Position numbers and translations under genes: made by a program
NCBI GenBank assembly: GCA_002995645.1
Contig: PUHO01000012.1
Location: forward strand, 87,653-151,652
Length of the DNA: 64,000 nucleotides
DNA from: SAR324 cluster bacterium
GTDB lineage: Bacteria > SAR324 > XYD2-FULL-50-16 > HCM1
Direction: 5' to 3'
The notes under the pieces: model-generated
Databases searched by the model: none
The model's input: only the letters and a program-made list of their open reading frames with translations
What the model was told of the DNA's origin: nothing
Shown: piece after piece, positions 3,849 to 63,140 of the stretch
How the letters are laid out: the number at the start of each line of letters is the position of its first letter
Numbering within the stretch: position 1 is the stretch's first letter

Positions 3849-5987
3849 ATGAATACACAAAATGAGTATATAGAAACGTTTGCGTACGATAATCGTATTG
3901 TTCGAAACTTTATGCTGGCAACTATTGTTTTTGCCATCGTCGGCATGTTAGCCGGACTTGTTATTGCTTTCCAGCTAGCTTACCCTCAATTAAATTTTGG
4001 TATCCCTTTTACTTCGTTCGGTCGTTTACGACCTGTCCACACAAATGCAATTATTTTTGCTTTTGTTGGGAACGGTATCTTTATGTCAATTTACTATTCT
4101 TTACCACGTTTATGTAAAACACCTATGTTTTCTCGACGTTTAGGAAGTATTCACTTTTGGGGATGGCAACTAATTATTTTACTTGCTGCCGTTACCTTGT
4201 TACTAGGATATACAACGGGAAAAGAATATGCTGAACTAGAATGGCCAATTGATATTTTAATTACGTTAGTTTGGGTTGTTTTTGGTCTTAATATGATCTT
4301 AACGATCATAAAAAGAAGAGAAAAGCACATGTACGTTGCTATTTGGTTCTATTTAGCTAGCTTTTTTGCCGTTGCTATTTTGCATATAGTGGAAAGTATA
4401 GAAATACCTGTTTCTTTAATGAAAAGTTATCCTGTATATGCCGGGGTGCAAGATGCGCTTGTGCAATGGTGGTACGGACATAATGCGGTTGCCTTTTTTC
4501 TTACAACGCCTTATCTTGGCGCTATGTATTATTTCTTGCCTAAAGCGGCGCAAAGACCGGTTTATTCTTATAGACTATCTATTATTCATTTTTGGGCTTT
4601 AATTTTCATTTATATTTGGGCTGGTCCGCATCATTTACTTAATACGGCGCTTCCTGATTGGTTACAATCGCTTGGCGTTGTTTTCTCTCTTATGCTTATA
4701 GCTCCTTCTTGGGGCGGTATGTTAAACGGTTTATTAACATTACGCGGCGCTTGGGACAAAGTACGAACCGATCCGGTTTTGAAATTCATGGTTGTTGCTG
4801 TTACCGCTTACGGTATGGCGACTTTTGAAGGTCCTATGATGTCAATTAAAAGTGTTAATGCTCTTTCTCATTACACTGATTGGACAATTGGACACGTTCA
4901 CATTGGCGGTATGGGTTGGAATGGCTTTTTAACTTTTGGTATACTTTACTGGCTTGCGCCTCGTTTATATCAAACTAAGCTATATTCTAAAAAATTAGCT
5001 AATATTCACTTTTGGACGGCTACGCTAGGCATTCTTGTATATGCTATTTCTATGTATAGTTCCGGTGTGATTCAAGGTTTAATGTGGAAAGCATTTAATG
5101 TAGACGGTACGTTAACTTATCCTAATTTTCTTGAAACAGTACAACAAATTCACCCTCTATTAGTTTTTAGAGCTGTTGGCGGAAGTTTATATCTATTAGG
5201 AAGCTTAATCGGTATATATAACTTATTTGCTACTATGAAAGTAGGAAAACTTGCTATTGTAACAGAAGCAAGCGCTCCTTCTCAATCTACGTGGAAAAAA
5301 CAAGCAACAGAGCAAGGTCACAGATTATTAGAAGGTCGTATTGGCGTGTTTAGCGTTTTAATTGTTGTTGCTTTAGTTATTGGCGGTGCTGTGGAAATTA
5401 TTCCTATGTTTAGCGTAGCTTCTAATACGCCAACGATTGCTGCTGTTAAACCTTATACGCCTCTAGAGCTAGAAGGTCGCGATATATATATTCGTGAAGG
5501 TTGCAGTGTTTGTCATTCTCAAATGATTCGCCCTTTTAGATCAGAAACAGAAAGATACGGCGAATATTCAAAACCGGGAGAATTTGTATACGATCATCCT
5601 TTTGTATTTGGATCTAAACGTATTGGTCCGGATTTACAACGTATTGGTGGAAAATATCCGGACGGCTGGCATTACCAACATTTAGTAGCGCCTAATAGTA
5701 CGTCGCCGGGATCTATTATGCCTCCTTACCCTTGGTTAGCATCGCATAAACTTGATAGTTCTTTAATTAAAGATAAACTCAAAATTATGCGAAACTTTGG
5801 CATTCCATATACAAATACGGATATAGATCAAGCTCCGCAAACATTACGCGAACAAGCGCAAGTGATTGCTGATTCTTTGCAAAAGGCGTCTATTACAAAC
5901 GCACAACCGGATACGGAAATAGTAGCGCTTATTGCCTACTTGCAAAGACTAGGAAAGGATATTAAAAATCAAAAACAAACAAGGTAA
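3849..5987 (+). CDS. ccoNO: cbb3-type cytochrome c oxidase, fused subunits I+II (CcoN-CcoO)
   Basis: Haem-copper oxidase core (HVHIGGMGWNGF…YWLAPR) followed in the same ORF by a monohaem CcoO domain (CSVCHSQMIRPF). 712 aa. Confidence 0.9.
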   Translation: MNTQNEYIETFAYDNRIVRNFMLATIVFAIVGMLAGLVIAFQLAYPQLNFGIPFTSFGRLRPVHTNAIIFAFVGNGIFMSIYYSLPRLCKTPMFSRRLGSIHFWGWQLIILLAAVTLLLGYTTGKEYAELEWPIDILITLVWVVFGLNMILTIIKRREKHMYVAIWFYLASFFAVAILHIVESIEIPVSLMKSYPVYAGVQDALVQWWYGHNAVAFFLTTPYLGAMYYFLPKAAQRPVYSYRLSIIHFWALIFIYIWAGPHHLLNTALPDWLQSLGVVFSLMLIAPSWGGMLNGLLTLRGAWDKVRTDPVLKFMVVAVTAYGMATFEGPMMSIKSVNALSHYTDWTIGHVHIGGMGWNGFLTFGILYWLAPRLYQTKLYSKKLANIHFWTATLGILVYAISMYSSGVIQGLMWKAFNVDGTLTYPNFLETVQQIHPLLVFRAVGGSLYLLGSLIGIYNLFATMKVGKLAIVTEASAPSQSTWKKQATEQGHRLLEGRIGVFSVLIVVALVIGGAVEIIPMFSVASNTPTIAAVKPYTPLELEGRDIYIREGCSVCHSQMIRPFRSETERYGEYSKPGEFVYDHPFVFGSKRIGPDLQRIGGKYPDGWHYQHLVAPNSTSPGSIMPPYPWLASHKLDSSLIKDKLKIMRNFGIPYTNTDIDQAPQTLREQAQVIADSLQKASITNAQPDTEIVALIAYLQRLGKDIKNQKQTR

Positions 5988-8797: not shown

Positions 8798-9256
8798 ATG
8801 AATATAAAACAAGAAAAAAAATCTATACCTGTATGGGCATGGGGGATCGGTTTATTTTATACCTCGTTTGTTCTTGTTTTTGCAGGATTTGCTATATATA
8901 GTACTCATCTTGGATTTCAATTTGTTACGCCTGATTATTATAAAGATAGCGTGAACTATCAAAAGCATATTATGGCAAGACAGCGAGCGCAGAGCTTAGC
9001 AGAAAAACCGACTCTAATATATAATGCAAAAGAACAGAATATAACGTTAGAGATACCGGTTACTTTTACAAGTGGCAAATTGTTTTTTTATAGACCAAAC
9101 GATCACAAGCAAGATAGGAGTCAAGTACTTTCAAATCAAGCGACGCAAGTCTTTTCTGTACAAGACTATAGTAAAGGCAAGTGGAAAATGCAACTAACAT
9201 GGCAAACAAACGGGAAGTCGTATTACCAAGAAAAAGAATTGTATATTACAAACTAA
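8798..9256 (+). CDS. ccoH: FixH/CcoH family protein
   Basis: 152 aa with an N-terminal TM helix, immediately after ccoG. Size and architecture fit FixH. Confidence 0.55.
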   Translation: MNIKQEKKSIPVWAWGIGLFYTSFVLVFAGFAIYSTHLGFQFVTPDYYKDSVNYQKHIMARQRAQSLAEKPTLIYNAKEQNITLEIPVTFTSGKLFFYRPNDHKQDRSQVLSNQATQVFSVQDYSKGKWKMQLTWQTNGKSYYQEKELYITN

Positions 9257-9870
9257 AATTCATCACATTCTTTACAATGTATGAGTTTAGGGCACGCTGT
9301 TTTATGACATTGTGTTTGTATGTTTTGGCTAAGACGGAGTAGCCCTCTTTCCATATGTGCCGAACGCGATCCTTTAAATGCAAAAGCCGTATTTGCCGTG
9401 GCGAGTGCTGTTAGTTTTGTAAAGAGTGTTGCCAAGTCTTTAATATAGCTTACTTTTGTGTTAGTTAGCTTAGCTTGTAATATGGGATAAAGCCATTGCC
9501 CACTTTCCCCGGTTACAATTACTTCGTTTAACATGGCAAACGAACGGGAAGTCCTATTACCAAGAAAAAGAATTGTATATTACAAACTAAAATTCATCAC
9601 ATTCTTTACAATGTATGAGTTTAGGGCACGCTGTTTTATGGCATTGTGTTTGTATGTTTTGGCTAAGAAGGAGTAGCCCTCTTTCCATATGTGCCGAACG
9701 CGATCCTTTAAATGCAAAAGCCGTATTTGCTGTGGCGAGTGTTGTTAGTTTTGTAAAGAGTGTTGCTAAGTCTTTAATATAGCTTACTTTTGTGTTAGTT
9801 AGCTTAGCTTGTAATATGGGATAAAGCCATTGCCCACTTTCCCCGGTTACAATTACTTCGTCTATTCCTT
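9190..9870. repeat. Near-identical tandem direct duplication (2 x ~340 bp) spanning the fixH 3' end and the murF 3' end
   Basis: 9190-9534 matches 9531-9870 with only about 6 substitutions. Each copy carries the last ~20 codons of fixH (+ strand) and the last ~84 codons of murF (- strand). Confidence 0.85.
9253..9534 (-). pseudogene. Duplicated MurF C-terminal fragment (93-aa chimeric ORF)
   Basis: The protein is identical to MurF residues ~390-477 (VIVTGESGQWLYPILQAKLTNTK…CKECDEF) except 2 substitutions, with a new MLNE N-terminus. It lies inside duplication copy 1. Confidence 0.7.
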
Positions 9871-20606: not shown

Positions 20607-21473
20607 ATGTCCTCTTGGATTCAAAAAATACTTTCGACAGAAAAGAAAACAGCTGTGCCAGCTGGAGTTTGGGTTAAATGTACGTCTTGCGGAGAAACTT
20701 TATATAGCAAGGATTTAGAAACGAATAATAAGGTCTGCAATAATTGTGGGTATCATTTTCGTTTAAATACAAAAGAAAGAGTGCGTTTATTACTTGAAGA
20801 AGGATATAAAGAGTTATTTACTAATATAACAACTGCCGATCCGTTAAAGTTTCAAGATACAAAAAAATATAAAGATAGAATTAAGCAAACTGTCGCAAAA
20901 GCAGGTGTAAACGAATCAATTAGCGTGTTTAGCGGTCTTTTGCAACAGCATTTTGTTTGTCTTACTGTTTTTAATTTTAGCTTTATGGGCGGATCTATGG
21001 GCTCGGTTGCCGGTGAAAAAATTACACGTGCCATTGAATATTCTTTAGAACATAAATACCCGTTTATTCTTGTTAGTGCTTCCGGTGGGGCAAGAATGCA
21101 AGAAGGCACTTTGTCTTTAATGCAAATGGCGAAAACAAGCGCGGCATTAGCGAAATTAGCGAAAGCAAAACTTCCTTTTATTTCTGTTTTAACTGATCCG
21201 ACAACTGGCGGCGTTTCAGCTAGTGTGGCTATGTTAGGCGATTTAATTATTGCCGAACCAAAAGCTTTAATTGGCTTTGCCGGTCCTCGTGTTATTCAAC
21301 AGACTATAGGGCAAGCTTTACCGGAAGGGTTTCAGCGTTCTGAGTTCTTACAAGAAAAAGGAGCGATTGACGCAGTTATAGAGCGTAATCGTCTTAAATC
21401 CGAGATAGGTTTATATTTAGATTACCTTTTCCCAGCAACGCAAGTTAAGTTACCATTAAAGGCAAAAGCTTAG
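20607..21473 (+). CDS. accD: Acetyl-CoA carboxylase carboxyltransferase beta subunit
   Basis: N-terminal Zn finger CTSCGETLYSKDLETNNKVCNNCGYH. Carboxyltransferase domain (FSFMGGSMGSVAGEKITRA). Confidence 0.9.
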   Translation: MSSWIQKILSTEKKTAVPAGVWVKCTSCGETLYSKDLETNNKVCNNCGYHFRLNTKERVRLLLEEGYKELFTNITTADPLKFQDTKKYKDRIKQTVAKAGVNESISVFSGLLQQHFVCLTVFNFSFMGGSMGSVAGEKITRAIEYSLEHKYPFILVSASGGARMQEGTLSLMQMAKTSAALAKLAKAKLPFISVLTDPTTGGVSASVAMLGDLIIAEPKALIGFAGPRVIQQTIGQALPEGFQRSEFLQEKGAIDAVIERNRLKSEIGLYLDYLFPATQVKLPLKAKA

Positions 21474-21475
21474 TT

Positions 21476-22525
21476 TAAATAGTTATTTAAATCTAAGATC
21501 GTGCCAAAGTTAGCAGGCGGGTAATAAAAATTTGAATCTAAGATCGTGCCAGATTAGAAGGCAAACAAGAAAAAGATTGAATCTAATATCGTGCCAAGTT
21601 GGTTATGTAACTTTGAAAAAACTTGAATCTAATATCGTGCCAAAGCTGGCAGGTAAGTAAGAAAAAGATTGAATCTAAGATCGTGCCAAGTTAGGAGCAA
21701 ACAAGAAAAAAACTTGAAACTAATATCGTGCCAAAGTTAGTATATAACTTTAAAAAGATACTCATATTATGTACTCTTGCAAGAGCGAGAATATAAAGCC
21801 CTGTCTTAAAACAAAGTAATTATTTTATATAGATTGTCTTTTTCTTTTGCAAAATAAATCATTGAAAACAACAGGTTAATATAAATAGTTATTTGAATCT
21901 AAGATCGTGCCAAGTTTGCAAGAAGGTAATAAAAAAGATTGAATCTAAGATCGTGCCAAAGTGAGTAGCAAACAATAAAAAAGATTGAATCTAAGATCGT
22001 GCCAAGTTGGCAGGTAAGCAATAAAAATTTAAATCTAAGATTGTGCCAAATTGGTTATGTAACTTTGAAAAAGTGTTCATATTTTGTATTCTTTTAAGAA
22101 GATATATGCAAGAATACAAAGCCCTTCCCTTAAAACAAAGTAATTATTTTATATAGATTGTCTTTTTCTTTTGCAAAATAAGTTGTTAAAATCAAAAGCT
22201 TAATATAAATAGTTATTTGAATCTAAAATCGTGCCAAGTTAGTAGCTTACAATAAAAAAAATCTTGAATCTAATATTGTGCCAAGTTAGTAGCTTACAAT
22301 AAAAAAAATCTTGAATCTAATATTGTGCCAAGTTAGCAGATAAGCAATAAAAAAGATTGAATCTAAGATCGTGCCAAGTTAGTAGCCTACAATAAAAAAG
22401 ATTGAATCTAATACCGTGCCAAAGTTAGTATATAACTTTAAAAAGATACTCATATTATGTACTCTTGCAAGAGCAAGAATATAAAGTCCTGTCTTAAAGA
22501 AAAGTAATTACTTGATATAGATAGC
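21476..22525. repeat. Higher-order tandem satellite: 3 units (~407, ~325, ~318 bp) holding 6+4+5 copies of a ~45-bp unit
   Basis: The conserved 24-mer core TTGAATCTAAGATCGTGCCAAGTT recurs 15 times at about 45-bp spacing. Each block is followed by a ~150-bp tail with palindromes (CTCTTGCAAGAG, TTTTGCAAAA). The repeat starts 3 nt after the accD stop. Confidence 0.9.
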
Positions 22526-22580
22526 TTTCTCCTATCAAGCAAGTTATTGCTATTACAGGAAAAAGCTTGTTTTGTGAAGG

Positions 22581-24035
22581 TTATTTATTCCAAGATTGAG
22601 CAAATTGAGCAAGCATTTTTACGCCAACGCCAGTTGCTCCGTTACTTGGATATATATCTTTATCTGGCACTTCAGCAGATGTTCCGGCAATATCAAGGTG
22701 TACCCAAGGGGTATCTTTAACGAACGCTTCTAAAAAAGTAGCTCCGCAAATACTAGATCCTTCTGCTGGAGTTCCCATATTTTTCAGATCGCCAACAGTT
22801 CCTTTAACGGCATCTCTGTAGCGTTTAGATAAAGGTAATTGCCAAATCGGTTCTTCTAGATTAGTACCAATTTTTTCAAGCTGTTCGTATAAATGTTGAT
22901 CATTTGTCATAGCGCCGGTATGCTCTTTTCCAAGTGCAATAATACAAGCACCGGTTAAAGTTGCAATATCAATAATCGCGTCCGGTTGGAACGTAGCAAT
23001 ACCATAAGAAATACAATCTGCTAAAATTAAGCGCCCTTCTGCATCTGTGTTTAAAATTTCCACAGTTTTGCCGTCATAGGACGTAACAACGTCGCCAGGC
23101 TTGGTTGCACTTCCGCTAGGTAAATTCTCAGCTAATCCAATTAAAGCGATAATATTAATTTTAGGTTTTTTTTCGCTAATAATTTGCATAGCTCCTAATA
23201 CAGCGGCTGCCCCGCACATATCTGTTTTCATTTCATGCATTTTAGCTGCCGGCTTTAAAGAGATACCGCCAGAATCAAAAGTAACGCCTTTGCCAACAAG
23301 AAGCAACGTAGGCGCATCTTTTTTATAAGAATAGCGTAACCCAACAACAACAGGATCTTCTACTGAGCCTTTGCCTACGGCATGAAGTAAATTAAGTCCT
23401 TCTTTTTTAATTTGATCTAGTGATAAACTGAAAAAGTTTAGTTGCTGATTTTTAGCTATCTCTTTAGCTTGTTTGTGAAATAAAGAAGGAGTTAGCAAAT
23501 TAGCCGGCGTATTGCCAAGATTACGAGCAAGGTAAACGGCATTGGCATGAATTTGCGCTTGTTTAAGTGGCTCTGTGAAATGTTCCGTTGTAAGCTCACT
23601 ATAGAGAAATAACGATTCTATTTTTTTATATTTTGGCTTAGATTGGAATGTATCATAGTAGTAATTACCAAGTAGGATACCTTCTATAATCGCTTCTATA
23701 TTAACAACGATAACGTTATCTGTTGTTGCCGGGAGGCACAGCGATACGTCTGTGATGCTTTCTTTTAATAATAGTTTTCCAATACGACTTCCTAAAGCAA
23801 GAAAAGAAGGGCTTGTTTTAGTTAAACTAATAACGTATAAAGTTTGTCCTTCATTGCCATGAAAGGTATGAATCGTATCATCTGGTAAAGGCGTTAATTT
23901 AATATAGCTAGCGGCGCAAGTAAAAAGATAAGGATTATCTTCTTGCCATTTTTGCGAGACCAAAAGTTGCTTTTCTTCGTTTAAAAAAGCAATATGGTGC
24001 TTTACTTGGTTATTTGTATTGACTTGTATTTGCAT
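22581..24035 (-). CDS. pepA: Leucyl aminopeptidase (M17)
   Basis: M17 catalytic block NTDAEGRLILADCISYG and metal-binding region VGKGVTFDSGG. SD-like AGGAG upstream. Confidence 0.85.
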   Translation of the reverse strand: MQIQVNTNNQVKHHIAFLNEEKQLLVSQKWQEDNPYLFTCAASYIKLTPLPDDTIHTFHGNEGQTLYVISLTKTSPSFLALGSRIGKLLLKESITDVSLCLPATTDNVIVVNIEAIIEGILLGNYYYDTFQSKPKYKKIESLFLYSELTTEHFTEPLKQAQIHANAVYLARNLGNTPANLLTPSLFHKQAKEIAKNQQLNFFSLSLDQIKKEGLNLLHAVGKGSVEDPVVVGLRYSYKKDAPTLLLVGKGVTFDSGGISLKPAAKMHEMKTDMCGAAAVLGAMQIISEKKPKINIIALIGLAENLPSGSATKPGDVVTSYDGKTVEILNTDAEGRLILADCISYGIATFQPDAIIDIATLTGACIIALGKEHTGAMTNDQHLYEQLEKIGTNLEEPIWQLPLSKRYRDAVKGTVGDLKNMGTPAEGSSICGATFLEAFVKDTPWVHLDIAGTSAEVPDKDIYPSNGATGVGVKMLAQFAQSWNK

Positions 24036-24139: not shown

Positions 24140-24367
24140 TTATGCTGATACTTCTTTTTCTATATCCTTACTGTTTTTATTATCTGGCATAACGATAATT
24201 TGAGCGTTATCGTTTTCTAGCGAGATTTCGCGCATACAATTAACTAAAAGTAATTGTTTTGGGTCTTTAATATTACTTTCTAGTATGTCAAAAGCTTTAT
24301 TTAAAGGCATATTATGTTGAATTAATAAAATTAGCTCTTTAGTAAGATCATGTAAAATACGTTCCAT
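24140..24367 (-). CDS. Hypothetical 75-aa protein
   Basis: ORF only. No motif recognised. Confidence 0.25.
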   Translation of the reverse strand: MERILHDLTKELILLIQHNMPLNKAFDILESNIKDPKQLLLVNCMREISLENDNAQIIVMPDNKNSKDIEKEVSA

Positions 24368-24439
24368 AAGTATAATATCAAAAAGTAATTAATATATTTT
24401 AGATTACAACTTATATACAATTACCATGCCATACTTTAC

Positions 24440-25775
24440 GAACGAGAAGAAGTTAAGAAGGGTTAGACGAGGAATCTAGTTGCTTTTTATTTTGATTCCA
24501 TAAGTTTATCATATAGGTTTTATGAGGTCGTGATTGACGTCAATGGCATTTTCTATGTTTAGTACGAGCTAATATAGGGGCGGTGTTTTTTTATGAGGTG
24601 GTACATTTGTCATCATATATACAGCAAAAAATTTTGCATTGATTGCAAATTGTTTTCTTGCAACAGTTGCTATATAAACGAGAAGAAATTAAGAAAGGTT
24701 AGACGAGGAATCTAGTTGCTTTTTATTTTGATTCCATAGGTTTATCATATCGGTTTTATGAGGTCGTGATTGACTCCAACGGCCTTTTCTATGTTTAGTA
24801 CGAGCTAATATAGGAACGGTGTTTTTTTATGAGGTGGTACATTTGTCATGTCATATCGCGAATTTCCTATTGTGCTTTTTCACACATACGAACGGCAAGA
24901 AAATTTTGCATTGATTGCAAATTGTTTTCTTGAAACAGGTGTTATATAAACGAGAAGAAGTTAAGAAGGGTTAGGCAAGGAATCTAGTTGCTTTTTATTT
25001 TGATTCCATAAGTTTATCATATCGATTTTATGGGGGCGTGATTGACGCCAACTAGCTAATATAGGAACGGTGTTTTTTATGAGGTGGTACATTTGTCATG
25101 TCATATCGCGAATTTCCCATTGTGCTTTTTCACACATACGAACGGCAAGAAAATTTTGCATTGATTGCAAATTGTTTTCTTGAAACAGTTGCTATATAAA
25201 CGAGAAGAAATTAAGAAGGGTTAGGCAAGGAATCTGGGTGCTTTTTATTTTGATTCCATAAGTTTATCATATCGGTTTTATGAGGTCGTGATTGACTCCA
25301 ACGGCATTTTCTATGTTTAGTACTAGCTAATATAGGGTGGTGCCTTTGGTACATTTGTCATGTCATATCGCGAATTTCCTATTGTGCTCTTTCACACATA
25401 CGAACGGCAAGAAAATTTTGCATTGATTGCAAATTGTTTTCTTGCAACAGTTGCTATATAAACGAGAAGAAGTCAAGAAGGGTTAGACAAGGAATCGGGT
25501 TGCTTTTTATTTTGATTCCATAAGTTTATCATATCGGTTTTATGAGGTCGTGATTGACTCCAACGGCATTTTCTATAGGCTTGCAGGTCTTCATCACAAA
25601 ACGCATTTTGATTTTCCCAGCATTTAATACCTAGTTTAGTACGAGCTAATATAGGGTGGTGTTTTTTCATAAGGCGGTACATTTGCCATGCCATATCGCG
25701 AATTTCCCATTGTGCTCTTTCACACATACGAACGGCAAGAAAATTTTGCATTGATTGCAAATTCATAGCAAATTG
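24440..25775. repeat. Tandem array of 4 decaying ~235-270-bp copies of the thyX 3' end, plus the genuine copy
   Basis: Units begin at ~24443, 24678, 24949, 25200 and 25462 (ACGAGAAGAA…). Each carries thyX 3'-coding segments (…TTTGATTCCATAAGTTTATCATATCGGTTTTATGAGGTCGTGATTGAC… and …CATATCGCGAATTTCC.ATTGTGCT.TTTCACACATACGAACGGCAAGAAAATTTTGCATTGATTGCAAATT…). The distal copies are the most degraded. Confidence 0.85.
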
Positions 25776-41151: not shown

Positions 41152-43014
41152 ATGAGTAAAATAGTTTTAGTTTCAGATACAAATAACCTGATTTACGATT
41201 CCTTTAAAGAAGCGCTTGTTTCTTATATAGGTTCCCAAAATTTAATATATCTAAAAGATACAAGTATGCTTGTGCCAACTTTAAAAGAGGCGGCAGTTGA
41301 TATTGTATTTTTAGAATATACTGATTCGGTTAAAGAACTGATTTCTATTATTCGCGATGATGCGTTACTTTCTCATTTAATTATTATTTTAACCTATGGC
41401 GGAAGGAAGCAACTTTCACTTTCTGTTGCAAAAGACCTAGGGGCGGACGATATCCTTGAAAAACCGTTTGAAGTTATAGAAGTTAGGCAAAAAATAGATC
41501 TTTTTCATGCCAATACAACCTATTCGCAAGATCTTACGCATATTAATATTGTTGATCCCGTTATGGCAGAACTATTAGCTTCGGCAAGTAACGCGATACA
41601 ACAAACAAAGCAAAATCAAGAAGATAGTATTGAAGAAAGAGAACAACAATCGCCTATTCATATTAATAACCCTCTTGATACAGAACAAGACGACGATATA
41701 GCAAACGAGTTTAACCTATCTGATTTAGATGACGAAGAGAGCTCTATTACAGCAGCTAGCAGTATAAACAAAGAAGAACGTACTTTGCTTTTAGACGAGG
41801 AAGATAACGAAAAACTAACTTCGCCTATTAACATTCATGTACCTGATACGCAAGAATCAAATGACTTTCAAAATAAACCGGCAACACCGGATCAATACGG
41901 CATTTTAGCAATCCCTGTTGTTAGTGATACGCCGGATAGTAGCTTAAATCTATATGAAGAAGAGGATTCGCAAGATGATAGAGATTTATTTGCTGCTGAA
42001 GAAGAAGAAGCGGAAGCAGTTTCTCTTTTTGGAGAATATAATGATGACCTGCTACCATTAGAGTCGAACTTTATTTTTGAAGACGATACGAGCGAAGTTG
42101 AAACCGATTTTACTAGTGACAACGATACAAGCGAAGAAGAGCCCGGTTTTATCTTTGTAGAAGATGATAGCGAAGAAATAAAGTTAGATCCAGATTTTAC
42201 CTTTGAAGAAGATAGCGCAGAAATAGATCTAGATCCAGATTTTACCTTTGAAGAAAATACGAGCGAAGACGAATCAGACTTTTTATTTGAAGAAAATACG
42301 AGCGACAACGAAGAGGAATCGGACTTTTTATTTGAAGAAGTTACAAGCGAAGACGAAGACGAATCAGACTTTTTATTTGAAGAAGATACGAGCGAAAACG
42401 AAGAGGAATCAGACTTTTTGTTTCAAGACAGCAGTAATGAAGAACTAGTGCCAGAGCCTAACTTTACTATTGAAGAAGATAGCGAAGAACTACAATTAGA
42501 ACCTAATTTTATTGTTGAAGAAGACAGCAACGAAGAAATACAATTAGACCCGGATTTTTCCTTTGAAGAAGATACCACGGAAAGCGATATATTTGTAGAT
42601 TCAAACGAAGAAGAACTAGCGGCATTAGACAATATAAATACTTTGCAACAACCTTCTTTTATTGACACAGAAGACCAAGTTGAGCAAGAAGAAGATAATT
42701 TTATTTTTTCTTTAGAGAATTATAAAAGTAATGAAAGTGATACGTTTTCTCAAAAATTGAAAGAAGCCGGTTTGCATTTAGAAACAAAAAGACATACTGA
42801 TATGTCTAGTATTTCTATTCCTAGTGACGATATACACGCACACATAGCTAAAGACGTATTTGCGTTAAATGACCTTACAATGAGTGATATTATCCCAGAT
42901 GAAGACAAGGCAGACGCAAAAGAAAACAGGCAACCGTCTTTAGACAAACAAGCTTTAATTAAAGATATTCTTGAACGTGCAACAGAAGATATTACGAAAA
43001 TTATTCAAAAGTAA
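41152..43014 (+). CDS. Atypical (pseudo-)receiver domain protein with a long acidic repeat-rich tail
   Basis: The N-terminal ~115 aa have the CheY-like beta1-beta5 pattern (IVLVSDT…, VDIVFLEYTD, IIILTYGG, ILEKPF), with Glu where the phospho-acceptor Asp is expected and Ser-Asp for the acidic pair. Residues ~150-520 are D/E-rich with repeated DPDFTFEEDS / ESDFLFEENTS units, encoded by 60-66-bp DNA repeats around 42140-42440. Confidence 0.5.
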   Translation: MSKIVLVSDTNNLIYDSFKEALVSYIGSQNLIYLKDTSMLVPTLKEAAVDIVFLEYTDSVKELISIIRDDALLSHLIIILTYGGRKQLSLSVAKDLGADDILEKPFEVIEVRQKIDLFHANTTYSQDLTHINIVDPVMAELLASASNAIQQTKQNQEDSIEEREQQSPIHINNPLDTEQDDDIANEFNLSDLDDEESSITAASSINKEERTLLLDEEDNEKLTSPINIHVPDTQESNDFQNKPATPDQYGILAIPVVSDTPDSSLNLYEEEDSQDDRDLFAAEEEEAEAVSLFGEYNDDLLPLESNFIFEDDTSEVETDFTSDNDTSEEEPGFIFVEDDSEEIKLDPDFTFEEDSAEIDLDPDFTFEENTSEDESDFLFEENTSDNEEESDFLFEEVTSEDEDESDFLFEEDTSENEEESDFLFQDSSNEELVPEPNFTIEEDSEELQLEPNFIVEEDSNEEIQLDPDFSFEEDTTESDIFVDSNEEELAALDNINTLQQPSFIDTEDQVEQEEDNFIFSLENYKSNESDTFSQKLKEAGLHLETKRHTDMSSISIPSDDIHAHIAKDVFALNDLTMSDIIPDEDKADAKENRQPSLDKQALIKDILERATEDITKIIQK

Positions 43015-45212: not shown

Positions 45213-47560
45213 ACAATTTCATGCTATAAATATAACTTGTGTAGAAATGTTGTGAATTTTCGCCAGAGGTTGCCAATTTTTTCTAAGAACATAGCAGAGC
45301 TATATAGCCCCTGTGATATTGTTCTTATTCTACCTATTATTCATGAAATGCATGTAGCCAGTAATAGTATGTTATTATTGCCTTTTTCTTTCGCTAGTAA
45401 GAATCATTAATTACAGAATGTAGAAGAGATGGCAAAGCAAGCGAAGAGCTTAGCTATGTTTAAAAAATTTAACAACAACCGGCATGTTATGGTTCCGATT
45501 TTGTCATAGCCATCAAGGGTATATTGTTAGTATCGTTTCCTTGTGCTAGCAGATAGAAGAGATCCAAGCAAAGGCAGGTCGATAAAAGAAATTAGTGAAA
45601 CAATTATTTCTTTTTATAAGCTAAGGTAAACAAGTTCAAATTTAAAACTTTATGTGACGTACTCAAAGCTAGAAGCGTAAGTTTTTCTTGTTGTGGTTCC
45701 AGTTTTGTCATAGCCAGCAAGAGTATATCGTTAGTATTGTTTTCTTGTGCTAGCAGATAGAAGAGATCCAAGCAAAGGCAGGGCAAGAAACAATCCTTTC
45801 TTTTTATAAGCTGAAGTAAACAATTTCATGCTGTAAATATAACTTGTGTAGTAGTGTTGTGAAGTTTCGCTAAAGCTTGCCAAGTTTTCCCTAAAAACAT
45901 AGCAGAGCTATACAGCAAAGCCGTTTATTATGATATTGTTCTTATCCTGCCTATTCTCCATGAAATGCTTGTAATCGTTAAGATTATGTTATTGTTGCTT
46001 TTTTGTGCTAGTAAGAATCATTAATTACAGAATATAGAAGAGATGGCAAAGACAGGGCGACAAAAGAAATTAGTGAAACAATCCTTTCTTTTCATAAGTC
46101 TGCATACATAATTCAATTTAAAACTTTATGTGACGTACTCAAAGCTAGAAGCGTAAGTTTTTCTTGTTGTGGTTCCAGTTTTGTCATAGCCAGCAAGAGT
46201 ATATCGTTAGTATTGTTTCCTTGTGCTAGCAGATAGAAGAGATCCAAGCAAAGGCAGAGCAAGAAACAATCCTTTCTTTTTATAAGCTAAAGTAAACAAT
46301 TTCATGCTATAAATATAACTTGTGTAGAAATATTGCCAAGTTTTGCCAGAGATTGCCAATTCCCCCTAAAAACATAGCAGCGCTGTATAGCCCCGTTTGT
46401 TATGATGATGTTGTTCTTATCCTGCCTATTATTCATGAAATGTTTGTAGCCGGTAAGAGTATGTTGTTATTGCCTTTTTATTGTGCTAGTGAGAATCATT
46501 AATTACAGAATATAGAAGAGCTTAGCAAAGACAGGGCGACAAAAGAAATTAGTGAAACAATCCTTGCTTTTTATAAACTGAAGTAAATAATTTCATGCTG
46601 TAAATATAACTTGTGTAGTAGTGTTGTGAAGTTTCGCCAGAGGTTGCAATTTTTCCCAAGAACATAGCAGAACTATATAGCCCCTTTTGTTATGTTGTTA
46701 CTGCCGTCCAACCACCCCTTATCCGGCGCAGGATTAAAGCCACCTATGTTGTTACTGCCGTCCAGCCAGCCAGCCAACCAAGCAAAGACAGGGCGACAAA
46801 AGAAATTAGTGAAACAATCCTTTCTTTTTATAAGCTAAAGTAAACAATTTCATGCTATAAATATAACTTGTGTAGAAATATTGCCAAGTTTTGCCAGAGA
46901 TTGCCAATTCCCCCTAAAAACATAGCAGCGCTGTATAGCCCCGTTTGTTATGATGTTGTTGTTCTTATCCTGCCTATTATTCATGAAATGCTTGTAGCCG
47001 GTAATAGTATATTATTATTGCCTTTTTCTTGCACCAGTAAGAATCATTAATTACAGAATATAGAAGAGATGGCAAAGCAAGCGAAGAGCTTAGCCAAGAC
47101 AGATGCGACAAAAGAAATCAGTGAAACAATCCTTTCTTTTTATAAACTGAAGTAAATAATTTCATGCTGTAAATATAACTTGTGTAGAAATATTGCCAAG
47201 TTTCGCCAGAGGTTGCAAGTTTTCCCAAGAACATAACAGAGCTATATAGCCCCGTTTGTTATGATATTGTTCTTATCCTGCCTATTATTCATGAAATTAT
47301 TGTAGCCAGTAATAGTATATTATTATTGCCTTTTTGTGCTAGTAAGAATCATTAATTACAGAATATAGAAGGCAATCAAGCAAAGGCAGGGCAAGAAACA
47401 ATCCTTTCTTGTTATAAGTTGAAGTAGAGATTTCAATTTAAAACTTTATGTGGCGTACTCAAAGCTAAAAGCGTAAGTTTTTCTTGTTGTTCCAGATTTG
47501 TTATAGCCAGCAAGGTATATTGTTAGTATCGTTTTCTTGTAAAGGGAAATGCGATAAAAC
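45213..47560. pseudogene. About 2.3-kb array of decayed tandem copies of the murG 3' end (about 5-6 units, two alternating sub-unit types)
   Basis: Recognisable, repeated murG 3'-coding strings: …AGATGGCAAAGCAAGCGAAGAGCTTAGC…, …AAAGAAAT(C/T)AGTGAAACAAT.CTTTCTTTTTATAAGCTGAAGTAAACAATTTCATGCT…, …CAAAGCTAGAAGCG(C/T)AAGTTTT…. ORF-track fragments 45604..45786, 46320..46502 and 46868..47050 translate to MurG-like pieces (…LPIIHEMFVAGKSMLLLPF…). An odd GC-rich insert lies at ~46690-46790. Confidence 0.85.
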
Positions 47561-47643: not shown

Positions 47644-48081
47644 CTATTTCTTTTTAGGTTTTGTTTCTTTAGTAGCCTTAGCTTTTGTATCAACAGTAGC
47701 CGGTTTAGCTTTAGCTTTTGTGTCAACAGTAGCTGCTTTTGCTTTAGTAGCTTTAGCTTTTGTGTCGGTAGCTTTCGTAGCCGTATTTTTATCTTTTGTT
47801 GTCTCTACCGTTTTTACTTGTTTTTCTGAAACAGCATTAAGTACCGAATTATTAGCTTGTCTAGCTGTCATTACACTTAAGGTAATAGAAGTCAACATGA
47901 AAATAGTAGCAAGCCAAGTTGTTAATTTTGTTAAAAAGTTACCAACTGTTCTTGGGCTATTAGCTTGTCCGGCACTTCCAAAAGCTGCCCCAAGTTCGGC
48001 ACCGCGCCCCACTTGGCTTAAAACAATAAAAATAATAAGAATAGACACACTAAGGTGTAAGGTAAGTAAAAGACCGTTCAT
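47644..48081 (-). CDS. secG: Preprotein translocase subunit SecG with a K/A/T-rich C-terminal extension
   Basis: SecG core (LSQVGRGAELGAAFGSAGQANS…), then a ~45-aa tail TKATDTKAKATKAKAATVDTKAKAKPATVDTKAKATKETKPKKK encoded by a ~30-bp DNA tandem repeat. Confidence 0.75.
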   Translation of the reverse strand: MNGLLLTLHLSVSILIIFIVLSQVGRGAELGAAFGSAGQANSPRTVGNFLTKLTTWLATIFMLTSITLSVMTARQANNSVLNAVSEKQVKTVETTKDKNTATKATDTKAKATKAKAATVDTKAKAKPATVDTKAKATKETKPKKK

Positions 48082-51376: not shown

Positions 51377-54253
51377 ATGTTTACATTTATAAATAGAAAT
51401 AAATTTTTTGTTCTATCCCTGTTTTTGGTGTTGGTTTCTTCCTGCGTATATGCACAAACAACAACGATAACGCCGGAAGAAAAGTTTATTAAAAAATATA
51501 ATAAATTTTATTGGCAACAAATATACTATGGCAAAATAGACGGATCTAAAAAGTTAATGTTTTCTCATTCTATGGCGTCTGCTAAGCTGTCGTTTGCCGA
51601 TTTGGACTCAGACGGTGATAAAGACGCTATAATGGGCTTTCGTAACGGAAGACTAGGCTACTGGGAAAACAAAGGAACAAACAAAGTCCCTAATTTTGAA
51701 TTAATAACCGATTCCTTTAAAGGCTATTTTTTTGAACGAGGGAAAGATAGTAAACAACGTAGGATTAAAAAAATTATTCAATTGCCGTTAAATGCCGTGC
51801 CTGCGTTTATGGATATAGACGGCGATCAAGATTTAGATTTGTTAGTTGGTAATCATGACGGTACTATATGGCTGTTTGAAAATAGAGGGAATAACTTAAT
51901 CCCTTTATATTATCTTGTTACTAAAAAGCTTATGGATATAGACGTAAAGCAAAATAGCGCGCCTATTGTGCGAGATATGGATATAGACGGCAAAGCGGAT
52001 TTAATTATAGGTGATGCAAAAGGGGAAATTTGGTTTTACAAAAATCAAGGGACTGTTGTTTTTCCAAGATTTGATCAAAAAACAAGAAAACTAGTCGGCG
52101 TTGTTCCGTTAAATACAAATGCAGTGCCGCAAGCTTTAGATTGGAATAAAGACGGTTTTGTTGATTTAATTGTAGGAACGCAAGATGGAACCTTAGTATA
52201 CTATGAAAATAAAGCGAATATAGACGAATTAGATTGGAAGACCCCGAAAGTGAATTTTAACTTTCTTGACGTTGGCGGGAATGCCGGTCCGGTTTTTAGT
52301 GATTTAGACGCAAGTAAAACGCCTGATTTAATTGTTACTAGTACGCAACCGATTGTGCAATACTATCAAATGCGACAAGATGAAAATGACACGATGTTTT
52401 GGAGTATTAGCGATAATTTCTTTTCTTATTACAAGTTAATCTTAAGAGGCAACAAAGCGATGCCCGCTTTTGGGGACGTTGACGGCGACGGCGATACAGA
52501 TGCCATTATTGGCGAAGAAGACGGCAATTTAAATTATTATATTAATAAAGCAAAAACAAAAGGCGAATTAAATTGGCACTTAGAAACGGAAAACTTGCTG
52601 AATATTAAACATTCTTATAATAGCGCCCCGGCGCTGGGCGATCTAGACGGTGACGGCGATCTTGATTTGCTTATTGGGCAAGCAGACGGATCTATTTATT
52701 ATGCAAAAAATATTGGCACGCCAAAAAAACCGCATTGGGAATTACAAGATACAACCTTTTTTCAAATTGACGTTGGGAATAATGCCGTGCCTCGTTTAGT
52801 TGATATAGACGGCGACGGCGATCTTGATTTGCTTGTTGGTTCTTTAATGGGTAGCGTTGTGTTATATGAAAACACAGGAAGCAAAACAAAACCTTTTTTT
52901 GTGTTAACTAACCCTAAGTTTGCTAAACTGACCGGCGTGTCTGATGTTGTTCCTTCGTTTTTTGATTGGAATAACGACGGAAAAAAAGATATGATCCTTG
53001 GTAATAGTAAAGGTAGTTTACAGATTTTATTCGGTGCGTCAAAGTATAACTCTATGTCTAATTGGGATCCTAATTCGTTTTTTACTATTTACCTTGATCC
53101 AGGCACGTATAGTGCGCCTTTGTTTTACGATCTAGATCAAGACGGCTTGCAAGATTTAATTATTGGTAACGGTGACGGCGATATTTTGTTTTTTAAAAAC
53201 CTAGGAACAACAAGCGCCGATCAAAATCGTTATTTAATTGATAACTCTATTGATGTGGAAGACGGGTCTTTAGTTGTATATCAAAAAGATCATATTTTAA
53301 AAATAAGTCGCCCAGTTGGGGATAAAGAAAAAAAAGTAATTAAAGGCAGCGAGGTCAGTCAAGTCAAACCGCATTACCACTTAGATTATACAGAAGAAAA
53401 GAAAGCCCCTGTGTATGAGAGTAAAGGTAAGCAATTAGTCTATAATAAAAATCTTTTGAATGCGGCGCCCACGCTTGCCGATATAGACGGTGATAAAGAT
53501 CTAGATATGCTTGTTGGCACAAGAGACGGCAAATTGTTTTTCTTTAGTAATGAAGGTGATGATAAAAACCCTAAGTTTCGCAGTTCTACTTTTATTAACA
53601 TAAAATTAAAAGATAAAGAAAACGTAACGCCTATTTTTGCCGATATAGACAAAGACGGCGATTATGATTTGATTTTAGGAAGTAAGCAAGGCGCGATTAC
53701 AGTGTATCGCAATGACGGCACAAGAGAAAAACCGTTGTTTGTGGAACAAAAAAAATGGACAAAAGATATTTGGTTATATAAAAATACGCACCCCGCTGTT
53801 TGGGATTTTAATAAAGACGGTTATCCCGATTTGCTTGTTGGTTCTGTTTGGGGAAGAATGTCTTTATTATTAAATAGAGTAAATCATTTTAAGTTAATAC
53901 AAAAAGATTTCCAAGCTATAGACGTAGGGCATAATGCTTCGCCTTTTATTGGGATACCTGATAATGGAGGTAAACCGTATTTACTTATTGGAACAGATAA
54001 AGGCAAAGTTTTATTTTATCAAAACACAGGGGAAGATTTGTTAAAAGGAAAATGGAAACTCTCTAGTTTAGGATCTAATATTCAATTACAAAAATCAGTT
54101 AAACCGGTGTTAGCGGATATTGATAAAGACGGCGATCAAGATTTGATTATAGGAACGGAAAGAGAAGGCGTTTTACTCTTTAAAAACCAAGCGCAAAAAC
54201 CTAAAACAGACAAAGAAATACAAGATTATATACAAAAAGAGGCGGTAGAATAA
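51377..54253 (+). CDS. Large secreted FG-GAP/VCBS repeat protein (beta-propeller repeats)
   Basis: Signal peptide. At least 12 repeats of the form D.D.DGD.DL..G…G…Y.N (e.g. DIDGDGDLDLLVGSLMGSVVLYEN). 958 aa. Confidence 0.7.
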   Translation: MFTFINRNKFFVLSLFLVLVSSCVYAQTTTITPEEKFIKKYNKFYWQQIYYGKIDGSKKLMFSHSMASAKLSFADLDSDGDKDAIMGFRNGRLGYWENKGTNKVPNFELITDSFKGYFFERGKDSKQRRIKKIIQLPLNAVPAFMDIDGDQDLDLLVGNHDGTIWLFENRGNNLIPLYYLVTKKLMDIDVKQNSAPIVRDMDIDGKADLIIGDAKGEIWFYKNQGTVVFPRFDQKTRKLVGVVPLNTNAVPQALDWNKDGFVDLIVGTQDGTLVYYENKANIDELDWKTPKVNFNFLDVGGNAGPVFSDLDASKTPDLIVTSTQPIVQYYQMRQDENDTMFWSISDNFFSYYKLILRGNKAMPAFGDVDGDGDTDAIIGEEDGNLNYYINKAKTKGELNWHLETENLLNIKHSYNSAPALGDLDGDGDLDLLIGQADGSIYYAKNIGTPKKPHWELQDTTFFQIDVGNNAVPRLVDIDGDGDLDLLVGSLMGSVVLYENTGSKTKPFFVLTNPKFAKLTGVSDVVPSFFDWNNDGKKDMILGNSKGSLQILFGASKYNSMSNWDPNSFFTIYLDPGTYSAPLFYDLDQDGLQDLIIGNGDGDILFFKNLGTTSADQNRYLIDNSIDVEDGSLVVYQKDHILKISRPVGDKEKKVIKGSEVSQVKPHYHLDYTEEKKAPVYESKGKQLVYNKNLLNAAPTLADIDGDKDLDMLVGTRDGKLFFFSNEGDDKNPKFRSSTFINIKLKDKENVTPIFADIDKDGDYDLILGSKQGAITVYRNDGTREKPLFVEQKKWTKDIWLYKNTHPAVWDFNKDGYPDLLVGSVWGRMSLLLNRVNHFKLIQKDFQAIDVGHNASPFIGIPDNGGKPYLLIGTDKGKVLFYQNTGEDLLKGKWKLSSLGSNIQLQKSVKPVLADIDKDGDQDLIIGTEREGVLLFKNQAQKPKTDKEIQDYIQKEAVE

Positions 54254-59558: not shown

Positions 59559-61745
59559 ATGCTCTTTTTATCTAGCCTAGAAAATTTAATTCATCAAGAA
59601 GATTCATCTTCTGTCAAAGAATTGCTTCAAACTACGTTGCAATGGTTTTCCAAGAACCAAGTAGCATTGCAAGCAAATAAACAAATCTTTACCTTTTTAG
59701 AAAGATACGTAGATCGCAGCGCGTGGGGGCGTCTTGATTCGCTTAGTTTAGTTGTTGGCATGTTAGCCGAATGCTGGCAAATAAGCGAAGAGCTGCAAGA
59801 AAGTATACAAAAAACGTTTCCTGTTGAAGTGTTACGACTATTAGAATTAGTTGTTTCTTTATGTGAAATACGTCCTTTAGAAAGCTACAATGAAACGCAA
59901 GTAGTGAATCATTTAGCAGAGCATATTAGAAAATTAGTATATGTTCTAGCTACTGATTTTCGATCTTTATTTATTGTGCTGGTTATTCGTGTTGTACGAT
60001 TGCCTTTAAATAAAGAAATTTTAGATAAAAATCGTCTTAAAGTAGAAGCAAGAGAATGTATTGAAATTTATGCTTCTTTAGCTGAACGCTTTGGTCTTGC
60101 TAATGTTAAGACTTATTTAGAAGACAAATCGTTTGGGATTTTATATCCGGAAGAATATAATGATATTGCAAAATATAAACGTCTTTTTGCAAAAGAGCAT
60201 ACTAGTTTCCTAGATGAGATCAAGCAAGAAGTAACGCAATTAATTAGCAATGCCGGTATTCAAGATTTTGAGGTAAAAGCACGTATTAAACATAATTATT
60301 CGATATATTTAAAATCGATACGTTATCAAGTTTCATATGAAAAACTATATGATATTCTGGGAATGCGTTGTATTTTAGAAAAGGAAGACGATATTTATGT
60401 TGTACTTGGTTTATTACATCATAAATATAGATTTGTAGAAGATCGGTTTAAAGATTATATTACCTACCCTAAAGCAAACGGATATCGTTCTTTACATAGT
60501 TTTTTGTATGCACAAAGTGGAATGGGCTTTGAAATACAAATTAGAACAAAAGAAATGGATTATGAATCCGAATATGGCACGGCATCGCATTGGTCATATA
60601 AAACGGTGAATAATTCATCTTTTACTAGTGTAGAAAGTCCTTTCTGGGTGCAAGAATTAACAGAGAACCTAGTTGCCGCCAAAGACGCGACAGAGATTTT
60701 TACATTATTTAAAAAAGAAATATTTTCTGAATTTGTTTATGCGTTTACGCCAAAAGGAAAGTTAATTAAATTAGCATTAGGTAGCACAGTATTAGACTTT
60801 TCATATGCTATTCATAGCGATATAGGAAAGTGTACAACAGGTGCTATGATTAACGGGCAATATAAAAGTATTCGTACTGTTTTACAAAATGGCGATCAAA
60901 TAGAAGTACTTGTTTCAAAGCAACAAAAACCAAACGCTAACTGGCTTTTATTTGTAAAAACGTCACGTGCTAAATCAAAAATAAAGGCTTTCTTACGATC
61001 TGAAAATAGGGATATAGCTATCAGGGAAGGGCGAGCTATTTTTCAAAAGATTCTTATAGAGTTACAAATAGCATTGCATACGGCAGAAAGTTCGCAACAG
61101 ATGGTTCGTTTACTAGATGATGTTCATTGTGCAGATAAGGAAATACTATACCAACAAATAGCTTACGGACGTATTTCTAATAAAACGATACTTCGTTATT
61201 TTGATGAAACTTATGCCGCTTTTCCATCACCTAAAAAGCTTTTTAAGTTTAAACGACCAAATCAAGAGCAAGAAAGCTTAATTCATAATGTAAAACCTTT
61301 ATCAGTTAATGATATCCTAGAGCTAGACAATATGCCCGTTCGTTTTGCTCAGTGTTGTAAGCCAAATAAAAACGATACTATTATGGGGATTATAGGGCAA
61401 AGTCGTGATATTGTTATACATGTAACTAATTGTGCTCATGTGAGTGAACTTCAGTCAAATAAAACAATGATACCTTTAACATGGAATGATGAAAGTACTA
61501 ATTTTAGTCTTCGTGTGAATTTAGAAGTAGTTTCTTTAAAATCGGCAAGTAATATATTAAAGTTACTGGAAATACGAGGAATTACTTTGAAAAAAGCAGT
61601 ATTAGTACAAGAAAAAAAGATCATTAAACAAGAAATATATCTTTTAATTATAGATAGTAAAGTATGGCATTCTATTGTGGAGAAGCTAAATAAAATGAAA
61701 GCGGTAATAGATATATCTATTACAGAAGATATAATGGATTCCTAA
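59559..61745 (+). CDS. relA: Long RelA/SpoT-homologue (p)ppGpp synthetase, RelA-type (hydrolase motifs degenerate)
   Basis: Synthetase domain (FKDYITYPKANGYRSLHSFL…EIQIRTKEMDYESEYGTASHWSYK). TGS and ACT-like C-terminal regions. The HD hydrolase motif positions read …GMLAECWQISEE… (no His-Asp). Confidence 0.8.
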   Translation: MLFLSSLENLIHQEDSSSVKELLQTTLQWFSKNQVALQANKQIFTFLERYVDRSAWGRLDSLSLVVGMLAECWQISEELQESIQKTFPVEVLRLLELVVSLCEIRPLESYNETQVVNHLAEHIRKLVYVLATDFRSLFIVLVIRVVRLPLNKEILDKNRLKVEARECIEIYASLAERFGLANVKTYLEDKSFGILYPEEYNDIAKYKRLFAKEHTSFLDEIKQEVTQLISNAGIQDFEVKARIKHNYSIYLKSIRYQVSYEKLYDILGMRCILEKEDDIYVVLGLLHHKYRFVEDRFKDYITYPKANGYRSLHSFLYAQSGMGFEIQIRTKEMDYESEYGTASHWSYKTVNNSSFTSVESPFWVQELTENLVAAKDATEIFTLFKKEIFSEFVYAFTPKGKLIKLALGSTVLDFSYAIHSDIGKCTTGAMINGQYKSIRTVLQNGDQIEVLVSKQQKPNANWLLFVKTSRAKSKIKAFLRSENRDIAIREGRAIFQKILIELQIALHTAESSQQMVRLLDDVHCADKEILYQQIAYGRISNKTILRYFDETYAAFPSPKKLFKFKRPNQEQESLIHNVKPLSVNDILELDNMPVRFAQCCKPNKNDTIMGIIGQSRDIVIHVTNCAHVSELQSNKTMIPLTWNDESTNFSLRVNLEVVSLKSASNILKLLEIRGITLKKAVLVQEKKIIKQEIYLLIIDSKVWHSIVEKLNKMKAVIDISITEDIMDS

Positions 61746-63133: not shown

Positions 63134-63140
63134 GAGTATA

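Follow-up and report, generated by a model that had tools for sequence, protein, structure and literature searches.

In the accounts drawn on here, the genome of Ehrlichia ruminantium holds many intergenic tandem arrays of long period, which expand and contract through slipped-strand mispairing (PMC10710844; PMC3287509, citing Frutos et al. 2006). For VNTR-141 and VNTR-105 (VNTR, variable number tandem repeat) of Wolbachia wMel, both of which have internal short direct repeats and copies carrying deletions, slippage together with concerted evolution between periods has been proposed (PMC3287509). Here we describe a nested intergenic array located between the convergent genes accD and pepA of a SAR324 cluster bacterium, within a window of 64,000 nucleotides of contig PUHO01000012.1 (the whole stretch of DNA that was analysed). 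Both parts of its repeat unit can be traced to the 3' ends of the two flanking genes, and the array probably arose by repeated, nested tandem duplication across the accD/pepA junction, the two stop codons having once lain about 9–11 nt apart. Judged from its sequence, it belongs with the intergenic tandem duplications of the E. ruminantium and Wolbachia VNTR type: its copies lie head to tail on the same strand in non-coding DNA, truncated copies of the flanking genes are present, and several such arrays occur in the one window.

As in E. ruminantium, many long-period tandem arrays are present here in the non-coding DNA of one genome, and the four arrays of the window together occupy ~7.6% of it. 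E. ruminantium, however, is a pathogen of the order Rickettsiales, whereas the arrays described here belong to an uncultivated lineage and are concentrated at convergent, 3'-to-3' gene junctions. Work by Collins and colleagues from 2005 is said to have found the E. ruminantium repeats accompanied by duplicated gene fragments. The Wolbachia VNTRs share with the accD/pepA array an intergenic position, internal short direct repeats and copies with internal deletions. They differ from it in having periods of 105–141 bp built around 23-bp hairpins, whereas the accD/pepA array lacks a conserved hairpin, is nested (~45 bp within ~320 bp) and has two parts that can both be traced to flanking 3' ends.

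Two other kinds of array look similar at first sight. Plasmid origins carry iterons, and the sopC site of the F plasmid consists of 12 copies of 43 bp. In general layout, the accD/pepA array is like such iteron and centromere arrays: same-orientation repeats of ~20 bp recur regularly every ~45 bp, and the core is conserved while the spacer varies more freely. It is unlike them in that its core comes from the 3' end of a housekeeping gene, and the features that mark iterons and partition sites (sopC, parS-like) were not found: there was no dyad symmetry or inverted repeat within the core, no DnaA box within 21400–22650, no plasmid or phage context, and no rep, par, cas or DNA-binding gene adjoining the array among the scanned open reading frames (ORFs). 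The higher-order-repeat satellites of eukaryotes offer a structural analogy only. In both, a short monomer is set in a longer repeated unit and the end copies are more diverged, but the array described here is bacterial and intergenic, measures 1 kb rather than megabases and has no centromere role.

Layout of the array and the source of its parts

All coordinates given are positions in the 64-kb window, and repeats were called with Tandem Repeats Finder (TRF), motif scans allowing mismatches, and multiple alignment. The core of the repeat, TTGAATCTAAGATCGTGCCAAGTT, occurs in 15 copies between accD and pepA, all on the plus strand within 21487–22425 (starts at 21487, 21532, 21577, 21623, 21669, 21714, 21893, 21939, 21985, 22029, 22217, 22264, 22311, 22357 and 22402). 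Twelve of the 15 were recovered at ≤3 mismatches (expectation, 0 in 100 shuffles), and no copy was found on the minus strand or in the rest of the 64 kb even when six mismatches were allowed. The consensus copy, TTGAATCTAAnATCGTGCC(A)AAGTT, has a period of 44–47 bp and is nested in three units of ~320–400 bp; TRF reports periods of 46–47 bp inside a 324-bp period, with an extra 136-bp period within unit A. The multiple alignment shows the order of elements in a copy: a near-invariant 19-nt block (TTGAATCTAAnATCGTGCC), an A-run that varies in length, GTT, ~12 nt of variable sequence and another A-run. The spacers between cores are 20–23 nt long, resemble one another and were grouped into types s1–s4. 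These data agree with a first-pass annotation of the same DNA, which had reported a higher-order tandem array of 15 core copies in three units (~407, ~325 and ~318 bp, carrying 6, 4 and 5 copies), with a well-conserved block of ~24 nt and more variable spacers. That annotation had the array begin 3 nt past the accD stop, but the span of homology is wider, extending from ~21340, inside accD, to ~22615, inside pepA.

accD lies on the plus strand and pepA on the minus strand, so that the array separates two 3' ends. Each unit consists, in order, of a decayed accD end (which makes up most of the tail), the original spacer (head), and one to several ~45-bp fragments led by the pepA end. The features of the locus, from left to right, are as follows.

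20607–21473, plus strand: accD (acetyl-CoA carboxylase carboxyltransferase beta), intact left flank and donor; TIGR00515, E = 1.5e-115; Pfam Carboxyl_trans and Zn_ribbon_ACC
21340–21473, plus strand: donor segment, last ~134 nt of accD, source of the three tails (alignments, nhmmer, 75–80% identity)
21474–21486, plus strand: head copy 1, TTTAAATAGTTAT, ~10-nt original spacer plus pseudo pepA stop (TTA); collinear with 22570–22583
21487–21622, plus strand: sub-array A1, cores c1–c3 with spacers; TRF period 136 bp x 2
21623–21737, plus strand: sub-array A2, cores c4–c6
21738–21768, plus strand: start of tail A, ~31 nt, no significant similarity to accD or pepA
21769–21879, plus strand: tail A, decayed accD 3' end ending in a pseudo-stop, contains CTCTTGCAAGAG and TTTTGCAAAA
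21880–21892, plus strand: head copy 2, TATAAATAGTTAT
21893–22052, plus strand: sub-array B, cores c7–c10
22053–22083, plus strand: start of tail B, ~31 nt, no significant similarity to accD or pepA
22084–22203, plus strand: tail B, decayed accD 3' end with an 8-nt insertion; 11-bp inverted repeat at 22083–22120
22204–22216, plus strand: head copy 3
22217–22425, plus strand: sub-array C, cores c11–c15, including a perfect 47-bp duplication
22426–22456, plus strand: start of tail C, ~31 nt, no significant similarity to accD or pepA
22457–22569, plus strand: tail C, best-preserved accD 3' pseudo-copy, abutting the real pepA junction (z = 11.5, collinear alignment, 80%)
22570–22580, no strand assigned: residual original spacer, from pseudo-accD stop to pepA stop (collinear alignment)
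22581–22615, minus strand: pepA stop plus last ~10 codons (AQFAQSWNK*), donor of the 24-mer core and of the first ~8 nt of the spacer
22581–24035, minus strand: pepA (M17 leucyl aminopeptidase), intact right flank; Pfam Peptidase_M17, E = 5.5e-117

When the unit junctions were aligned, the sequence directly preceding each head proved similar to the 3' terminus of the accD reading frame. In local alignments, the last ~220 nt of accD scored z = 4.9, 10.0 and 11.5 against shuffles for tails A, B and C, respectively. When a profile of the three tails was searched with nhmmer against the window with the array masked, the top match was accD 21340–21471, corresponding to tail positions 32–143 of 155. 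Global identity between the donor segment and the tails is 75–80%, with tail C the best kept (80%), and the accD-derived part amounts to about the last 110–120 nt of each tail, taken from the last ~130 nt of accD. From donor to tails the G+C content drops from 37% to 23–32%, with 39 GC>AT changes versus 19 AT>GC changes. Both palindromes picked out by the first-pass annotation are present and lie inside this accD-derived pseudo-sequence, where CTCTTGCAAGAG matches accD TTCTTACAAGAA, the codons of the conserved FLQE; they do not recur in every unit as had been stated, CTCTTGCAAGAG being limited to tails A and C and TTTTGCAAAA to tails A and B. The ~70 nt after the terminal core showed no significant similarity to either gene when aligned locally with the final 374 nt of accD and the final 320 nt of pepA (z −0.5 to 1.3). 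This segment is made up of a terminal-type spacer, the ~31-nt tail start and the beginning of the accD-derived part, and the later profile search assigned everything from tail position 32 onward to accD.

The cores can be traced to the opposite flank. The end of accD, its stop, head TTTAAATAGTTAT, core 1 and the following AGCAGGC are collinear with a stretch that runs from tail C over the 11-nt spacer and the pepA stop into the ~10 final codons of pepA. At this predetermined position, the alignment of the core with the pepA end gave z = 5.3, and in 2000 dinucleotide shuffles this score was never reached. Extended by 8 nt, the consensus core shares 23 of 32 positions with the pepA end, a score also attained in 6 of 5000 shuffles. 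At 22595–22612 the last codons of pepA themselves contain an in-frame repeat of 9 bp x 2 (ATTGAGCAA); because the core of the array is likewise built in two parts, the sequences suggest that this repeat is older than the array.

The C-termini of the AccD and PepA proteins both align with homologues, which identifies the genes as donors and the repeats as copies. Moreover, the leftmost copy is the intact end of accD and the rightmost is the intact end of pepA, a hallmark of tandem duplication across a junction. With a core from the pepA end and a tail from the accD end, the array is thus duplication debris by origin. The process probably started with illegitimate duplications, by slippage or at microhomologies, at a convergent junction with almost no spacer. 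Later growth and shrinkage would have proceeded by slipped-strand mispairing and unequal exchange, while the copies decayed toward A+T. Two features of the array exemplify the later phase: read directly from the sequence, sub-array C holds a perfect 47-bp duplication (22241–22287 = 22288–22334) phased as spacer plus core, and core c3 has a terminal-type spacer but no tail, so that either the tail was deleted or the sub-repeats alone were duplicated. Both are very recent events in the array. Arrays may persist at convergent junctions since a duplication there would leave both genes and their promoters intact; on this account the array would require no sequence-specific function. As a side effect, a 1.1-kb buffer now lies between two genes that formerly abutted.

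Sister arrays at other gene junctions

TRF identified three further large intergenic arrays in the window, each of which carries copies of the 3' end of a flanking gene (blastn). The first, at 9195–9864, consists of 334 bp x 2 at 97% identity across the convergent fixH/Mur-ligase junction, and includes pseudo-copies of the last 62 nt of fixH (9529–9590) and of the terminal 278 nt of the Mur ligase gene (9253–9530); the ancestral stop codons of these two genes overlapped by about 4 nt. The second, at 24455–25576 downstream of thyX, contains four extra copies of the last ~102 nt of that gene at 92–97% identity, in units of ~250–262 bp with internal sub-repeats (TTTTATGAGGT..., window 24400–25580). 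It sits upstream of a 75-aa ORF (24140–24367, minus strand) for which no Pfam or NCBIfam match was found. The third, at 45213–47560, fills the 2.3 kb between the convergent genes murG and secG, the largest non-coding stretch of the window, with ~476-bp modules that hold at least nine copies of the murG 3' end of 32–96 nt. The 3' part of secG also carries a short in-frame tandem repeat (33 bp x 2.3, 47673–47747).

Arrays are found at three of the four convergent junctions (P ~0.001 for at least three of four arrays falling there among ~47 junctions). At the fourth, a relA/spoT-like gene (59559–61745, plus strand) faces a UDPGP-family gene (61748–63172, minus strand) with stops 2 nt apart, and this junction resembles what the other three are inferred to have been before duplication. 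With copy identities that run from 97% down to about 75% across the four arrays, the accD/pepA array is the oldest and most reworked. The sister arrays have unrelated sequences and contain no motif comparable to the core. A short motif common to the other arrays, TGCCAAGT, was dismissed as too short and too infrequent. It is conceivable, though unlikely, that in this lineage such buffers are built specifically at convergent junctions, as at three of the four here, through a directed process or through selection. Apart from this possible preference for convergent junctions, seen in an uncultivated lineage, nothing about the arrays is even mildly unusual.

Uneven divergence and the competing explanations

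Several observations weigh against an origin in duplication with no later function. Divergence was computed from edit distances, and internal pairs were matched by spacer type; these pairs reuse copies and are non-independent, so that their p-values are inflated. Among such non-independent pairs, divergence is 3.7% in the 19-nt core and 24% in the remainder of the sub-repeat, compared with 13.8% in the tails. Divergence of the internal cores is thus ~4-fold lower than that of the tails and ~6-fold lower than that of their own spacers; six internal cores have an identical 19-mer. Five of the eight G/C positions of the core (C7, G15, G17, C18 and C19) do not vary among the 15 copies, amid pseudo-sequence that is decaying toward A+T, and the consensus core has a G+C content of 44% versus 34% in its pepA source (5 AT>GC and 2 GC>AT changes). 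Ordinary unequal crossing-over should have homogenised the spacers too, and a conversion confined to 19–24 bp is an assumption. Nor does every part of the unit have an evident donor. The first ~31 nt of each tail gave no significant similarity to accD or pepA in local alignments, and the A-rich half of the spacer appears not to trace convincingly to either gene: neither an 11-nt exact match (ACAAGAAAAAG) to accD 21349–21359 (z = 3.3, 12 of 1000 shuffles) nor a vague similarity to the stop of accD together with the head is convincing.

These data bear above all on co-option, an explanation that we consider unlikely, in which the array originated by duplication but its internal cores now form a tandem set of sites for a DNA-binding protein (for instance a roadblock or insulator separating the two facing transcription units, or an iteron-like titration array) under purifying selection. 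The contrast between internal cores and the spacers and tails, the five invariant positions and the gain of G+C in the core while the tails lost it all speak for this, as do the single orientation and the regular spacing of 44–47 bp. The terminal cores, however, behave otherwise. Only for cores c6, c10 and c15 is positional orthology unambiguous, because they are tied to their tails; they differ from one another by 8.3%, 20.8% and 20.8%, compared with 7.9%, 14.1% and 19.2% for the tails; when pooled, cores and tails diverge at the same rate (12/72 versus 32/232, p = 0.57). The end copies of the sub-arrays, and the terminal ones above all, lie farthest from the consensus. Such an edge effect is typical of the pattern expected under concerted evolution, and there is no obvious reason for selection to spare exactly the end copies. 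In addition, the core has no dyad and no rep, par or DNA-binding neighbour, and the sister arrays, unrelated in sequence, offer nothing comparable to it. Furthermore, 9 of 32 positions distinguish the core from the true pepA end, and any binding site would therefore have arisen anew.

Nor was an array of the motif found elsewhere. Searches for the core returned 49 single chance matches in unrelated taxa among the GTDB species genomes, three single matches in the JGI metagenomes and seven in IMG/VR, and no array in any of these collections. The loci of two relatives contained no tandem repeats; in one of them, the nearest relative, and the only one, to share the nrdJ...accD synteny, accD is followed by a 180-bp spacer that holds an ordinary hairpin but no repeats. 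The first-pass annotation, which took the 24-mer to be under selection, had itself listed its absence elsewhere among the observations that together would count against that idea.

The uniformity of the internal cores could fit concerted evolution as well as it fits purifying selection on a co-opted site. Confined gene conversion or slippage is favoured over selection, because it explains the edge effect, the sister arrays lack a comparable motif and there is no independent sign of function. Homogenisation of the internal cores would have been limited to the single stretch whose copies are still alike enough to pair, the diverged, indel-rich spacers acting as barriers and the end copies escaping. 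The earlier statement that the core is conserved while spacer and tail drift is thus true of the internal copies, but not of the terminal cores, which diverge at the tail rate. The selection invoked to explain it, acting on an iteron, a processing signal or a small-RNA module, is unsupported, since core and tail are pseudo-copies of the pepA and accD ends.

Particular signals within the repeat were also considered. A role for GATC sites and Dam methylation was ruled out: contrary to the first-pass annotation, which had GATC in most copies, the site occurs in only 7 of the 15 cores, the G of GATC at core position 11 is the least conserved column of the core (G in eight copies, T in six, A in one), and the window holds 156 sites versus ~206 expected. 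Sigma-54 promoters combine a −24 GG and a −12 GC element at canonical spacing. A candidate of this type on the minus strand (TTGGCACG-N4-TAGA) was rejected: its −24 half fits, but the −12 half reads TAGA and not TTGC in every copy. The TTGGCACG block derives from pepA codons. A hairpin between core end and spacer (GCC...GGC) was ruled out as it is not kept across copies.

It is also rather improbable that the array serves as an RNA module, lying in a long 3' untranslated region of accD or pepA or in an internal transcript, with the 45-nt unit acting as a sponge for a protein or a small RNA, a processing signal or a stability element. Read-through from either gene is plausible, since no terminator-like site was found within or beside the array; the first-pass annotation had let the first copy overlap an accD terminator region, but neither the end of accD nor the array has such a site. 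The A-rich spacers could suit an RNA module, as could the sequence TTGCAA-17 nt-TATAAA on the minus strand of tails A and B (21852 to 21824; 22148–22176), which the promoter scan skips because its −10 hexamer ends in A. However, decayed accD codons make up the sequence of this candidate promoter, tail C lacks it, and the scan found no excess of promoter-like sites in the array (4 versus 5.6 expected). Folding did not differ significantly from shuffles (z = 0.0 on the plus strand and −1.6 on the minus strand), no hairpin is kept across copies, and in Rfam 15 the window gave a single tRNA at gathering threshold, with no match at E <= 1 within 21300–22700.

That mis-assembly of a metagenome-assembled genome (MAG) created or inflated this array and its sisters is very improbable. 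The contig, of 179 kb, is metagenome-derived and has no close relative on record, but the copies differ by 4–25%, with indels, deletions and graded ages across the four arrays (97% to about 75%), a divergence that assemblers do not invent, and assemblers normally collapse repeats instead of expanding them; the flanking genes, moreover, are intact and in frame. Least credible of all is a known repeat class, whether CRISPR (clustered regularly interspaced short palindromic repeats), REP/BIME (repetitive extragenic palindromes/bacterial interspersed mosaic elements) or the origin or centromere of an integrated plasmid or phage: a 24-nt repeat alternating with ~21-nt spacers between convergent genes gives a superficial likeness, but the spacers of 20–23 nt are mutually similar and no cas domain or cas, rep or par neighbour was found among the scanned ORFs, which speaks against CRISPR, and the core is non-palindromic, derived from local gene ends and without a copy elsewhere in the window on either strand, even at six mismatches, which speaks against REP/BIME.

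Genomic setting and significance

The neighbours of the array are nrdJ (class II ribonucleotide reductase), accD and pepA, with thyX further along, and the other scanned ORFs of the window are housekeeping genes (cbb3 oxidase, lipopolysaccharide and murein synthesis, glycolysis, relA/spoT). The window has a G+C content of 35% and no skew reversal. The best NCBIfam matches of pepA are leucyl aminopeptidase models (E = 2.8e-127), slightly below their curated cut-offs. The nearest relatives of accD have 62–65% identity and the nearest of pepA 43%, in MAGs labelled SAR324, Lambdaproteobacteria or Deltaproteobacteria. Searches for exact copies of the two proteins returned no record, and no collection yielded a second strain.

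Some other genes of the window deserve mention in their own right. A single 712-aa ORF at 3849–5987 joins a COX1 domain (CcoN-like, residues 16–446) to FixO (CcoO, residues 491–705), an apparent fusion of cbb3 oxidase subunits I and II. Upstream of ftsW/murG, a 620-aa ORF (41152–43014) without a Pfam match at 1e-8 contains in-frame 45-bp tandem repeats of GAA/GAC-rich DNA, an acidic repeat region (42160–42548). An FG-GAP repeat protein (51377–54253) weakly matches the eukaryotic beta-propeller models of BBS2/BBS7, and the gene at 61748–63172 encodes a UTP-glucose-1-phosphate uridylyltransferase of the UDPGP family (PF01704), which is mainly eukaryotic. These last two are possible hints on the lifestyle or gene-transfer history of the uncultivated lineage.

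A 24-mer under selection, as first described, would have hinted at an unknown DNA- or RNA-binding system; the evidence points instead to ordinary intergenic tandem duplication, and placing the array there spares experiments that would seek a binding protein. The locus illustrates in detail how the debris of duplication, possibly helped by concerted evolution, can mimic a conserved motif with drifting spacers. At the same time, the four arrays form a datable series (97% to about 75%) of how abutting convergent genes acquire kilobase-scale non-coding separation in an otherwise compact genome. If the preference for convergent junctions holds genome-wide, it would bear on the origin of bacterial non-coding DNA.

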